Positions 959 to 41,301 of a stretch of 64,000 bases of DNA are shown here, one piece after another. Source of the stretch: Tubiluchus corallicola (lineage: Eukaryota; Animalia; Priapulida); NCBI GenBank assembly GCA_030141605.1, contig JAQGDQ010000058.1:467852-531851 (forward strand), read 5' to 3'. A program made the position numbers and the translations under genes. The notes below the pieces were generated by a model, which made no database searches, was not told the DNA's origin, and saw only the letters and a program-made list of their open reading frames with translations. Each line of letters begins with the position of its first letter. Position 1 is the first letter of the stretch.

Positions 959-1107
959 GGGTTCAGTGAAATTGTAATTATAATCCTTCAATGCACGCCG
1001 CTTAACCTCTTCAGCAAATTCATCCCATACTTCCCCCTTTGGTTTAGCTAATGTAATGATCATCAGCGATTCATAAGCTTTCTTTGCGTCTTCATCTCTG
1101 GTGTCAT
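959..1107 (-). CDS. Constant exon C2 of NPR-like receptor (guanylyl cyclase receptor family) ectodomain; gene continues beyond position 1
   Basis: Acceptor ctgttatgcag|AT at 1107 and donor CCC|gtaagt at 959. The 149 nt (phase 1 to 0) translate (N)DTRDEDAKKAYESLMIITLAKPKGEVWDEFAEEVKRRALKDYNYNFTEP, resembling the NPR ectodomain segment after the 'W.R.D' motif, in frame with C1. Confidence 0.85.
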
Positions 1108-1162
1108 CTGCATAACAGTTAAACAGTCGTGAATCAGTCCTGTAGTTATATATATATATATA

Positions 1163-1386
1163 TTAACTAAGTATTAACTAATGAACTAGTCGTATTTTTG
1201 AATAAACTATTTTAAGTTATTACATACTTGAACTAACTAATTGTATATCTCATCACTGCACATTATGGAAATACTGTGATCAGTAATAGTTACTGTGTTG
1301 TAAATCCACTCAAAATAAATAAAGTATAATAACTTAAAATAGTTTATTCAAAAATACGACTAGTTCATTAGTTAATACTTAATTAA
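1163..1386. repeat. Foldback/MITE-like inverted repeat, ~55-bp perfect arms
   Basis: 1168-1222 (taagtattaactaatgaactagtcgtatttttgaataaactattttaagttatta) is the exact reverse complement of 1327-1381; spacer ~105 nt. Confidence 0.85.
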
Positions 1387-2039
1387 AATTTACAAAACCC
1401 ATACAATAGATACGATAACAGAAACGATTCTCGAAGTACATAATCCTATAAGGCCATGCAAAGTACAAGTTGTGCATTGTAGTGTACAATGTTGCTACTT
1501 AATTCAGAACTCCAATACATGTGGAATTAATACAATTGATGTAGTATTACGGTTATTACAGCAGTACTAATAGTTGATTCTAGCATAAGTTGTTTATTAA
1601 TGAGTACTTGATTGAAAGACAGTCTAAATAATAACTTAAAATACAATTATACGTACAATCAGTTAACAAAACGTTTAGTGGACTTATGTAGTCTGCAACA
1701 ATTTGAAGAGAATGCCACTGGATGGATGACCTGATCTGAGTTTATGAAAAAAAATTTTGTATAATAGCAAGTCTAAGTTTGGCGTGTAATTCTTGAGTTA
1801 TGTACCGATAATAACAGAGCTGACCCAATAATAGTTCTTTGTATGTCATAGTTTGCGCACTCGAAAAAATGACGGCGGGGGGGGGTCTCAGTCGAATTGT
1901 TGCAACTACATGAGGGTGATCGATAATATTCCTGGAAAACAAATCACCTTTTAATGGCGAAAAATTGGCAATGAATTTATTAATTTCAATCTCATTACTT
2001 CGATCATCATTATAATTGGGGCATACTGATTTAGTATGA

Positions 2040-2160
2040 ACTCCCCATAGGTTCAACAATCTACTTTTAAAGGCAAATAGAGAAAGGAAAGACCTACAAT
2101 CTACTATTTGAATTGGTAAACTATTCCATAGGCGGCTGCCTTTTTGGAAAAAAAACATTA
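2040..2160 (-). mobile_element. 3' end relic of a CR1/L2-type LINE ORF2
   Basis: Translation RLWNSLPIQIVDCRSFLSLFAFKSRL resembles the 'WN.LP....SL..FK..L' C-terminus typical of CR1/L2 reverse transcriptase ORFs. Confidence 0.45.
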
Positions 2161-37260: not shown

Positions 37261-37521
37261 CAGGGTGTTGCAAAAGAAAGAATTCCTAAGAAATGTTATA
37301 GCCATACCAATGTGCAAAAGAAACAACGCCTTAACAAATGCTATAAAAATACCAATATTACACCGGACATACCACATTGTATGGTACGAAGCTTTCAATT
37401 ACGCAAATGTAATACAAGGCAGAAGTCCAATCTCATTTTGGAAGATTTTTTGTTTGATTTTGTCAGCATATTTTATCATATATTAGCATATTTCTATTAC
37501 ACCATTTTTTGGAACGCCCCG
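37261..37521. mobile_element. Tc1/mariner-type MITE (degenerate)
   Basis: TA|CAGGGTGTTGCAAAA ... TTTTGGAACGCCCCG|TA: imperfect TIRs flanked by TA. Confidence 0.55.
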
Positions 37522-38980
37522 TACAAGAAATCTTATATTCAGAAGTGTTAAACAATAAACAGAAATATGTTTCATGCAAAGTCAGTCGATAGATAGTACA
37601 GAGACGCACGCCTAGTATCCGCTTTTTTATTTGAATTAAGTACAGAATTAATAGTCTGATTCACATCTTTCATATTCCATTAACAGCGCGAAAACTAAAA
37701 TGGGAAGATAATGTGGAGATTTTCTTTCATATAATATTTCAGTTTCAAAAAGGTTTGTAGTTTGCTTAGTTAGGTTGAGTACAACTAGGGCCTATTTCAC
37801 ACATAGAACGCAAGGAAAGTCTCGCATGCAAATCGTTGTCAGAAAATCTGGAGAAACCGAACGGTTTTTTTCCTGCGTCCAGATAGCTCCAGCATTCAGT
37901 GCTTTTACAGTTGCAATTTATAGAACTTATAATTAACGGATTTTATCAATAGTAGACTTGCTCATTTTTAGAGTAAAATCTATTAACCACGTTACATTTT
38001 GAGAATATAAATATAAGATAATTATATGTATATGTTCACAAATATAAGCATCTGTATTGAAATAATAAAACAAAAAATCCTCTACACGATAAGATTGATT
38101 AAAAACTTGTAATTTGTGCAGAAATTATGATAATTGTTGTTCGTTAAATGAGAAAGAAGTAATTAAGCAGTTAAATTTTAATATAACTTCCCTGAGTAAT
38201 CCTCACGAAAATGAAACATGCTCCGCTTTTGTCAAGCGGCAAATTTTCTAATAAAGAGGGAACATAGCTTCTAGCTCGTAGCAGTATTTCTCGCGAGAAA
38301 AACCTCGAGGAAAATTTCTCGTGACTCATGAGACATGAAGCATCAGTATGAAACGCTCCTTATAAAACTAGTATTTGGCATGTAGGCCCAAGAGCTATTA
38401 ACGACAGCAGCACCTCTTATATTATGTTCACTACACCGTTTGTAAATTGTTTTGCAGCTTACACCAATAACACTTCAAATTATTCAGGTCGTACTTTAAG
38501 ACAATGTACTGTAAGACAGAGTAGTTTAGACGACCCCAGCACGTACGAAGAATAGAATATTCTCCTCAGAACTCACCAAGTACGTAAAGGTCTGCTTACC
38601 AATTTACTGTGTACCGGTAAACGACATAAATGGTAAACATTGGATATGCTTCTCTTCAGGCTTTCGCTACGTGGCAAAGGAGGCAAAGCTGCTCTGTGGT
38701 TAATCTTAATTTAAGATTATATCTGTGGTTTTATACAATTACGTACAATTAGATATTATTTACATTGTATATATTTCGCCCTCCCTTCTCTCTCACTTGC
38801 GTCTGCGCGATTTTGCACGAAACAAGCAGCAGTAGCCATTGTTGGTAAGTCATTTATCGATCCAATTAATCGATTGGATCGAGCCATCAGTTGCCCAACG
38901 AATGAATTGGCTGACCGACTGATCAACAGATCCGTCACCGACAGAACGATCACCTAAGCAACCAACAAACTAACGAAATG

Positions 38981-39368
38981 ATCAATCAATCAATCAATCA
39001 ATCAATCAATCAATCAATCAATCAATCAATCAATCAATCAATCAATCAATCAATCAATCAATCAATCAATCAATCAATCAATCAGTCAGTCAGTCAGTCA
39101 GTCAGTCAGTCAGTCAGTCAGTCAGTCAGTCAGTCAGTCAGTCAGTCAGTCAGTCAGTCAGTCAGTCAGTCAGTCAGTCAGTCAGTCAGTCAGTCAGTCA
39201 GTCAGTCAGTCAGTCAGTCAGTCAGTCAGTCAGTCAGTCAGTCAGTCAGTCAGTCAGTCAGTCAGTCAGTCAGTCAGTCAGTCAGTCAGTCAGTCAGTCA
39301 GTCAGTAAGTCAGGGATTCAGTCAGTCAGTCAGTCAGTCAGTCAGTCAGTCAGTCAATCAATCAATCA
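38981..39368. repeat. Compound (ATCA)n-(GTCA)n microsatellite
   Basis: Directly visible; explains the INQS/VSQS ORF. Confidence 0.97.
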
Positions 39369-40634
39369 TTCAAAATATCGATCAATTAGACTATCAATCA
39401 ACCATACCATTATCATTGTCATCGTCATCTGCATCATTATGTTATGCTCGCGCAAGCAAAACAAATCGTTTGTGAATGTAAGCTGCTGAATGGAAGCAAT
39501 TTACTCTACTCTGCATTATCTATTGCTACCTTATTCATGTAGACTTGTTGCTGCATGGCATAGGTAGATTATTAGTCTGTGTTATTTGTATCGGCGTCGG
39601 TTTTTGTAAAGGAAACTATTCTATTATTAATGCACGCAATCAGAAGCGATTACATTTTGATGCGCTGTGGTACAATCAATCAATATTTTCTCTTCATCTT
39701 TAATTTCCTCGCAAGACGCTGGGTTACTGCGCATGCGTCTGTTACTGAGACTTACGATCACCCTTTATAATGTGTCATAATTTATGGCCAATAATTTTAT
39801 TATAATAATAATTTACTTAAATATCTTATGGCATGCTATTTTGCCCCACGTGTTTCTTTGTTCTTCCTCTTGCTCCTCGCTCACTTTTTTGTTTGTTCAC
39901 CCGTCCGTTTATTCGTTCACTCACCCGTTCGTGTGTCATATTTTTATATGTTTTTATTCGTTTTTCTGATTTAAATTATTCGCTCATTCGTTTTTTTTTA
40001 ATTTTAAGTGTTCTCTATATGCTGCAGACGTTCAAAATAATATTTTAGAACTGGGATTGCCATCTGTTGACAAAGAAAAGAAAGTATCTTAACCACTATT
40101 AGCCAGTGAAGTTTGCGACTTCGTACTGGAATTCACTTTCAGGTTCACAACAGATTTAAGTGAAGTCCTAGGGAGTGTATTATTATGAAAACTCTACTTT
40201 CCAACACATATGCCATCTGTTAACATGAAATAGCATAAATCGTCATAATTTTTTCAACGCACAATAAATACAAGCTTATTTGAGCATTAATTAACATATT
40301 ACCAAATGAATGAATTAAGAAATGACAAAGAAAGAAGAAAGAATTCAAGGAACAACAAACAAATAAACAAACAAACAAATTAACGAATAAAATACGTATA
40401 TGTACAATTGCGTAATTTTCTAAGCCCCTGCATAAATTTCGTTGGAGTGGCAAAGTTAGTGAACCAGAGAGTGAATGTCTGATAGAACAAATAAACGAGC
40501 GAACGAATACATGGATCTATGAATAGGCACAAGAACGTGCAAATAAACAAACGCATGACTGATTAATTTAAAAAATAATTCAACGATCGAATAAATGAAC
40601 AAAATCAAATGAATGCCACAATTTGATAGCTTAC

Positions 40635-41301
40635 CTCTAGATCTTTCAACCGCTTCCAAAGCAAATGTCTCTAAATCTGGCTTGTGTTCGTCTGAATCGT
40701 ACGGGAAAATTCCCGGGGGTGGAAATGTTCCTGCCTGTTTCTGCATCTGGCGGATCAATGCTTGACCTTGCAATCTGGAGATCTTTTTACCATCGTCATA
40801 GATGATTGATATATGTTCCCATTGAAATTCTGCCATAATCGCGAAAAAAATCTCCAAAAAGTTCTCTTGGTTGTAGGAAAGTCTAGATAGCAATGGATAC
40901 TTGTATTTTTTCGCTAGCAAGTCGCCAACTCCAGTAATCATTGGAATTTTAAAAAAGGAAGACAGATAGCCAACAGGCGTAATATCGCTACTGCAACTAG
41001 GGCCAACAAGCACAGACACATTAAATTTGTAAATTAATTCTGTTGCCCCTCCTGCGGCATATATTTCGTCACACGATTTGCCGTTTATAGTTTGATAATA
41101 GTACAATTTCGTGGTATAATTCACGTTGTACCTGCTGAGCGAATAATTGATCGCTAGATCGATAGATGCCGCCACCTCCTCGCCATCGAAATTAGCATTG
41201 GAGCTTCTCACTAGCAGTATACCCATTCTGGAGTGAATGTACCCTGTGACGAACTGTCCCACAAACAACAGCGCAGAGCTGATTATAGAAATCACTTTCA
41301 T
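40635..41301 (-). CDS. Variable cassette V6 (most distal)
   Basis: ATG 41301, signal peptide MKVISIISSALLFVGQFVTG, motifs SIDLAI, SCDE, VGPSCS, YPLLSRL, FQWEH. 667 nt = 222 codons + 1; donor TCT AGA G|gtaagc. Confidence 0.9.

Follow-up and report, generated by a model that had tools for sequence, protein, structure and literature searches.

Clusters in which alternative first exons precede a shared set of downstream exons are known from few families, namely the protocadherins, UGT1A/UGT2A, GCNT2, and the chelicerate sDscam genes. In the protocadherin and sDscam clusters, the variable exon encodes the whole ectodomain together with the transmembrane segment, and the promoters carry a conserved common element. 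To our knowledge, no natriuretic peptide receptor (NPR) gene has been described in which the first exon exists as an array of alternatives. Here, we analyzed a stretch of 64,000 nucleotides (nt) from the priapulid Tubiluchus corallicola (assembly GCA_030141605.1, contig JAQGDQ010000058.1, positions 467,852 to 531,851; hereafter “the window”, numbered from its first letter). On its minus strand, the window carries an NPR-like gene with six tandem copies of a first coding exon, five intact and one decayed, that lie upstream of a single copy each of two constant exons, C1 and C2 (Table 1). The six copies are referred to below as cassettes V1 to V6, V1 being the one next to C1.

Judged by its layout, the nearest analogue of this locus is UGT1. 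As described in PMC1885805, UGT1A has tandem first exons, each encoding a signal peptide together with the protein's N-terminal specificity half, and one shared downstream exon set that encodes the C-terminal half and the membrane anchor; the evolution of the UGT1 cluster is described there as a birth-and-death process, and some variable exons of the array are pseudo or relic copies. In the present locus, a cassette encodes the leader and the first half of the binding domain, and the relic in the array is V1. The two systems differ in their products, which are a glycosyltransferase for UGT1A and, here, a predicted hormone-receptor ectodomain of the periplasmic-binding-protein type in an invertebrate. 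They also differ in where the variable part ends, since the UGT1A boundary falls between two domains, whereas the exon boundary described here falls inside one folded domain.

The clustered protocadherins (Pcdh alpha/gamma) and the chelicerate sDscam resemble the locus in having variable 5′ exons, with promoters of their own, that are joined to constant exons and yield cell-surface receptors with differing ectodomains. Unlike in those clusters, the variable exon here covers only about 215 residues, no common upstream motif was seen, and there would be five usable exons rather than dozens. The kinship with NPR-C/NPR3 and NPR-A/B lies in the match to the Pfam ANF_receptor family, in the alignments of C1 and of the V profile, and in an NPR3-like relative from Priapulus. 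The original prediction knew of no layout of this kind for receptor guanylyl cyclases, and searches of open-access papers agree with it: they yielded work on protocadherins, UGT1, and sDscam only, and no array of variable first exons in the NPR/receptor guanylyl cyclase family. The architecture would be of a known kind, and what appears to be new is its occurrence in an NPR-like gene.

Table 1. Exons of the NPR-like gene in the window. Slashes mark splice junctions; E-values refer to the Pfam ANF_receptor profile.
Exon	Role	Position	Strand	Length (nt)	Coding content	Splice sites	ANF_receptor E-value	Remarks
V6	Most upstream variable first coding exon	40635..41301	-	667	222 codons + 1 nt; ATG	donor AG/GTAAGC	1.2e-17	hydrophobic N-terminus
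V5	Variable first coding exon	23143..23803	-	661	220 codons + 1 nt	donor AG/GTAAGC	9e-16	
V4	Variable first coding exon	18058..18706	-	649	216 codons + 1 nt	donor AG/GTAGGC	8.7e-14	
V3	Variable first coding exon	9730..10384	-	655	218 codons + 1 nt	donor AG/GTATGT		
V2	Variable first coding exon	6795..7449	-	655	218 codons + 1 nt	donor AG/GTATTG		intact cassette nearest C1
V1	Decayed relic cassette	4192..4828	-	637	ATG lost	donor AG/GTATGC kept		
C1	First constant exon	2642..2785	-	144		acceptor TTTTACTTCGTTTTCAG/TT in phase 1; donor GAA/GTACGC		sole copy in window
C2	Second constant exon	959..1107	-	149	phase-0 end before donor	acceptor TTATGCAG/AT; donor CCC/GTAAGT		sole copy in window

Searching the whole window with the six cassette translations (tblastn, E ≤ 1) returned exactly six loci, all on the minus strand, and no seventh. 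The six same-strand cassettes placed here by the original prediction were thereby recovered at the same coordinates, with lengths of 637 to 667 nt that are all of the form 3n + 1 and with 3′ ends that all read AGAG followed by GT. The spacers are short near the constant exons (V1–V2, 1966 nt; V2–V3, 2280 nt). The window is AT-rich eukaryotic DNA (about 35% G+C), in which only 8 of 8366 stop-to-stop frames reach 216 codons; because five of these eight are cassettes, the array is beyond chance expectation.

The variable exons each supply roughly the N-terminal 215 residues of the ANF_receptor ligand-binding domain and close with a donor in phase 1. V2 to V6 start with an ATG and a signal-like leader of some 15 to 20 mostly hydrophobic residues; their open frames measure 216 to 222 codons, and an in-frame stop lies 2 to 29 codons upstream of the ATG in every case. 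All six cassettes score above the gathering threshold of Pfam ANF_receptor (PF01094): their scores range from 30.7 to 64.5 bits, and the cut-off is 25.4. V1 is not intact: when it is aligned to V2 and V3, ACG stands where the start codon should be, stretches of 3 and 18 nt are missing, others of 1 and 5 nt have been inserted, and a TGA interrupts the frame between these two insertions. The earlier description of six cassettes with a signal peptide and an ANF_receptor domain therefore stands for V2 to V6, and for the receptor domain in all six, but fails for the start and frame of V1.

A DNA alignment of the six cassettes across the donor shows AGAGGTA to be invariant and similarity to be lost directly after it, in line with the claim that homology stops at the splice site. 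The upstream flanks can barely be aligned among cassettes, only V1 and V3 having about 70 nt in common. Because the flanks are no longer alignable while the exons are, the duplications must be old, with the exons alone preserved. At the protein level, V2 and V3 are 73.5% identical, V1 is about 60% identical to these two, and V4 shares 45 to 55% with V1 to V3. V5 and V6 are 47% identical to each other and 27 to 40% identical to the other cassettes.

Both constant exons are single within the window. With C1 and C2 as tblastn queries, the exons found themselves at E-values of 3e-31 and 5e-31, respectively, and nothing else better than 1.7 and 1.3. With 150 homologues as queries (family members from a HMMER search; E ≤ 0.01), C1/C2-like sequence was found only at 2640–2795 and 905–1114, besides a weak plus-strand match at 48502–48606 that is described further below. 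From 21 diverse sequences, profile hidden Markov models were made for each of the two constant exons. Run with filters off against 3407 stop-to-stop pieces of at least 12 amino acids (aa) in six frames, the models gave one match each (2.4e-26 and 3e-24); the next best E-values were 0.72 and 1.2, and the best runner-up for C1 lay on the other strand. The claim of a single C1 and a single C2 is thus upheld by three kinds of search. A Pfam scan of 127 other frames of at least 60 aa within positions 1–50119, which omitted frames overlapping cassettes and 12 of 163 low-complexity frames, found none that reached a gathering score. For comparison, C1 alone, which is a piece of 47 residues, obtained 19.5 bits with ANF_receptor and thus falls under the cut-off of 25.4. 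The intron between C1 and C2 is repetitive at 1200–2100, where the summed depth of contigs from a public sequencing run (run X1, described below) reaches about 640, compared with about 24 over C1.

Joining any cassette to C1 and C2 gives an open reading without a stop, with a split codon, G + TT, that encodes valine. The reading frame predicted from the acceptor phase of C1, namely a continuous protein from each cassette, thus holds in the sequence joined in silico.

A profile of the five intact cassettes matched 1227 proteins at E ≤ 1e-3 in a full HMMER scan; word-indexed protein searches with V3 and with the five-cassette alignment gave no matches. The best match, P0001, is annotated as “atrial natriuretic peptide receptor 3-like” from Priapulus caudatus (XP_014663429.1) and is 338 aa long, possibly as an incomplete model. 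The cassette closest to it is V4, with 54% identity. In P0001, the V-like part runs directly into C1- and C2-like sequence, and the join lies at the same place in both species (..ASEHAR-V-ILILAEGDHVRQLML in the window, ..ASEHAR-A-ICILSSADHVREMLL in Priapulus). The constant part of the Priapulus relative, when used as a query in a word-indexed search, matched only itself and one protein of Mya arenaria, with no isoform series seen. The Ixodes isoforms X1 and X2 were considered as first-exon variants and rejected, as they differ by an internal segment of 18 residues.

In a phylogenetic tree of 60 sequences (FastTree, LG + gamma), V1, V2, and V3 group together with a support of 1.0, V4 joins them with 0.974, and P0001 and P0002 join this group with 0.997. 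V5 and V6 form a pair (0.951) outside the clade of V1 to V4 with P0001 and P0002. One array therefore holds two exon-1 lineages that predate the divergence of V1–V4 from the priapulid gene. The tree and the identities suggest a history of birth and death, in which V1 to V3 would be young duplicates, V4 an older one, V5 and V6 a separate and older lineage, and V1 by now a relic.

As to the family, C1 is about 60% identical to residues 216–261 of NPR-C (1jdn_A, E 5e-12), the clearance receptor that lacks a cyclase, and there was no other PDB match. The V profile aligns to residues 86–212 of NPR-C and to NPR-A, and the GABA-B receptor R1 and the taste receptor T1R2 score slightly higher. From the two alignments to NPR-C, the boundary between V and C1 comes to lie close to residue 214 of that receptor and thus within its bilobed binding domain. 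The closest full-length relatives bear the names NPR or guanylate cyclase. Longer relatives such as P0006 (Lymnaea) and P0028 are receptor guanylyl cyclases of about 1000 aa. The family thus holds both cyclases of this size and the 338-aa “NPR3-like” model, and the gene may encode either a receptor guanylyl cyclase, as the original prediction had it, or an NPR-C-type receptor with a short tail and no cyclase. An NPR-C-type receptor would be pointed to only by the likeness of C1 to NPR-C and by the name that P0001 received automatically. Exons for a transmembrane segment, a kinase-homology domain, or a cyclase were not found in the 64-kb window and would lie to the left of position 1.

Selection on V2 to V6 was assessed for all ten pairs by the Nei-Gojobori method, applied to codon alignments. 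For V2–V3, the proportions of synonymous and nonsynonymous differences (pS and pN) are 0.59 and 0.15, respectively, the synonymous divergence (dS) is 1.14, and the ratio of nonsynonymous to synonymous divergence (dN/dS) is 0.14. The dN/dS ratios of V3–V4, V2–V5, and V5–V6 are 0.17, 0.18, and 0.19, respectively. In the six other pairs, synonymous sites are saturated, so that dN/dS is not computable, and pN is 0.27 to 0.47. Saturated synonymous sites, taken together with dN/dS values of 0.14 to 0.19, therefore indicate that the five intact cassettes have long been kept as coding sequence. On these estimates, the duplications date far back, and the two cassettes of each pair appear to have been under purifying selection for most of the time since. 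V1 serves as an internal control for this view, as a cassette that, by its sequence, has been freed from selection no longer has its ATG and has picked up indels and a stop. Of 19 positions conserved in the family (at least 70% across 54 homologues), each cassette also retains 14 to 17, among them the two cysteines, GP, R, and W. The V1 relic still keeps 14 of the 19, and this count is therefore blind to the recent death of a cassette.

A search of public sequencing runs for RNA data that contain 959–10384 returned none. Two public sequencing runs were compared with the region. Run X1, which is of unlisted kind and may or may not come from the sample behind the assembly, has short genomic contigs whose agreement with the region is about 99% across 26 of 30 bins, and it contains a fraction of 0.36 of the sequence words of 959–10384. 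This run behaves as genomic DNA, in that its contigs pass from exon to intron and none bridges two cassettes. A contig of 869 nt spans C1 and both its introns, and one of 860 nt runs from intron into V3. Each agrees with the window at about 99% and shows some differences. The corresponding word fraction for the small run X2 is 0.00.

The best explanation of these observations is, in our judgment, an array of variable first exons of the UGT1A/protocadherin type, to which we assign a probability of roughly two in three. Under this model, transcription would start in front of one cassette, so that each intact cassette would begin a transcript of its own. The donor of the chosen cassette would then be joined to the C1 acceptor at 2785, and the cassettes lying in between would be removed as part of the intron, which would measure from 4 kb (for V2) to 38 kb (for V6). 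Up to five receptors would result, with a common second half of the ectodomain and everything after it in common, and with first halves that differ by 27 to 70% of their residues. The variable/constant architecture put forward in the original prediction is supported in part, namely by the single C1 and C2, the lack of any Pfam-recognizable exon between cassettes, the preserved donor and phase, the purifying selection, and the presence of one relic.

Several observations weigh against this model. The gene runs past position 1, where further sets of constant exons may lie. No promoter motif common to the 600 nt upstream of V2 to V6 was found in a crude search for exact 8-mers, 10-mers with one mismatch, and 12-mers with two mismatches. 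A pyrimidine-tract acceptor test on the 200 nt upstream of each cassette, which is crude and has a background of 0.37 sites per 200 nt, gave one site each before V5 (−49) and V6 (−56) and none before V1 to V4. These acceptor-like sites lie on the minus strand at 23852/23853 (V5, CTTCTGTTTCAG/G) and 41357/41358 (V6, TTCTACTTTTTAG/T) and hint at non-coding leader exons for these two cassettes; with such sites 49 and 56 nt before the ATG, the 5′ ends of V5 and V6 may be more than a simple first exon. In the small run X2, which has the same species label and is guessed to be RNA, nothing was found on 959–2912 or 3100–12200, a result that says nothing on expression. Lastly, the recent silencing of one or two cassettes would be compatible with the dN/dS values, V1 itself having kept 14 of the 19 conserved positions.

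Silencing could also go further, such that only one copy of exon 1 is used, for example V2 as the nearest intact one or V6 as the first, with the rest silent but undecayed. V1 shows that cassettes in this array do die, and the lack of a common promoter motif in the crude test would fit a single point of use. Yet the copies are old, with six of the ten V2–V6 pairs saturated and a dS of 1.14 in the youngest intact pair, and dN/dS is nonetheless 0.14 to 0.19; moreover, all five keep their ATG, their frame of 216 to 222 codons, and their donor, whereas a copy that had been silent since its duplication should resemble V1 or look worse. We therefore regard exclusive use of one copy as unlikely. We think it very unlikely that the locus consists of two overlapping units, with V5 and V6 spliced to another constant set beyond the left end and only V2 to V4 using C1 and C2. 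The position of V5 and V6 outside the V1–V4 and Priapulus clade (support 0.997 for that clade) would agree with such units, as would the end of the window 958 nt after C2, but the donor phase and the AGAG/GTA junction are identical in all cassettes, C1 is the first compatible acceptor downstream, and the data are explained without a nested arrangement.

Less probable again is the inclusion of several cassettes in series in one mRNA, which would yield proteins with repeated half-domains. Seven other animal groups do have gene models whose predicted protein contains two or three V units (see below), and the acceptor-like sites before the ATGs of V5 and V6 could be read in the same sense. However, every intact cassette begins with an ATG and a hydrophobic leader of its own, with in-frame stops ahead of them; a splice from the V6 donor to the acceptor-like site that precedes V5 would lead to a stop codon; V1 to V4 lack such a site in the crude test; and a tandem half of a bilobed binding domain would be unlikely to fold. 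Finally, tandem complete genes or an assembly artefact have a negligible chance of accounting for the array. Complete genes in tandem were rejected, as no second C1 or C2 emerged even from the profile search and the spacers are only 2 kb. An artefact was rejected because the cassette proteins differ by 27 to 70%, and so do not represent collapsed or duplicated reads, and because contigs of run X1 match V and intron at about 99%. The original prediction had itself named a C1-like exon after each cassette and an artefact as outcomes that would speak against it, and neither was found within the window.

Returning to the array of variable first exons as the favored explanation, gene models of other animals may bear on how widely it applies. 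Nine models from seven animal groups contain two or three V-like units that map to one and the same stretch of the profile, and C1-like sequence is absent between these units. In Limulus, P0164 (with its fragment P0136) reads V, V, and then one C1 and one C2. The Branchiostoma “NPR3” model (P0027) has three V-like units, and the second unit of the Gigantopelta model (P0061) opens with a leader-like stretch of its own. V-like units in series also occur in the models from Lingula (P0026), Batillaria (P0087), Bulinus (P0143), Polypterus (P0070), and Hypsibius (P0003 and P0161). Protein accessions for four of these animals are XP_022238773.1 (Limulus), XP_013400522.1 (Lingula), XP_041355479.1 (Gigantopelta), and CAH1254748.1 (Branchiostoma). 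Two further multi-unit models, P0082 and P0095, were excluded from this list, since their repeats comprise the whole domain. The listed models are alike to the present array in having tandem V units without C1 between them and differ from it in having two or three units rather than six. These nine models, known here from predicted proteins, probably represent tandem first exons that were mis-joined by gene predictors, and they suggest that exon 1 has undergone tandem duplication repeatedly in the NPR-like family.

The genes next to the array lie upstream of V6 on the plus strand. A gene of the Fuseless family (PF15993) has two exons at 50723–51235 and 54252–54827, which cover profile positions 2–158 and 162–290; it begins about 9.4 kb upstream of V6 and reads away from the receptor array. 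Farther on, a DUF229 gene occupies 61464–63494 (+) as one frame of 676 codons (E 2e-115, with a weak Sulfatase match), which looks like an intron-less gene. With these as the next genes upstream, the array ends at V6 within the window. The weak plus-strand match at 48502–48606 is to residues 102–136 of P0002 (tblastn, E 4e-4, 43% over 35 aa). No Pfam match was found for the frame around it, and by its sequence it may be a chance match or a scrap of a seventh cassette.

The window also contains several tandem repeats, among them four long microsatellites. The spacer between V3 and V4 holds a 70-bp unit repeated 29 times with 96% identity (12250–14276). Microsatellites occur at 2907–3079, (AACATG)29, 120 nt upstream of the C1 acceptor; at 22181–22608, (TAAGG)85, about 530 nt downstream of the V5 donor; and at 38982–39372, (TCAG)98, about 1.3 kb downstream of V6. 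The fourth, a long dinucleotide tract at approximately 55100–55800, translates as (ER)n or (LS)n, depending on the frame.

Taken together, the locus and the gene models permit a broader reading, which we put forward tentatively and at a little short of even odds. In this reading, a receptor locus of the peptide-hormone type varies its ligand-binding head by a UGT1A-style array that includes two lineages predating the split between V1–V4 and the priapulid gene; NPR-like genes of many invertebrate phyla make unnoticed use of the same device, their tandem first exons having been fused by gene predictors; and the locus is the first variable/constant cluster in the receptor guanylyl cyclase/NPR family. 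The tandem units in models from horseshoe crab, brachiopod, gastropod, tardigrade, amphioxus, and fish point to an annotation problem of larger extent and possibly to an evolutionary route that was taken more than once. If the array is real, the locus would add to the known variable/constant clusters a signaling receptor whose ligand-binding domain joins a variable half, selected from the array, to a constant one. A single gene could then answer several ligands, or be tuned to tissues, through one shared signaling body. The cassettes would also provide a natural domain-swap series for learning which half of the bilobed NPR ectodomain sets ligand and dimer specificity.

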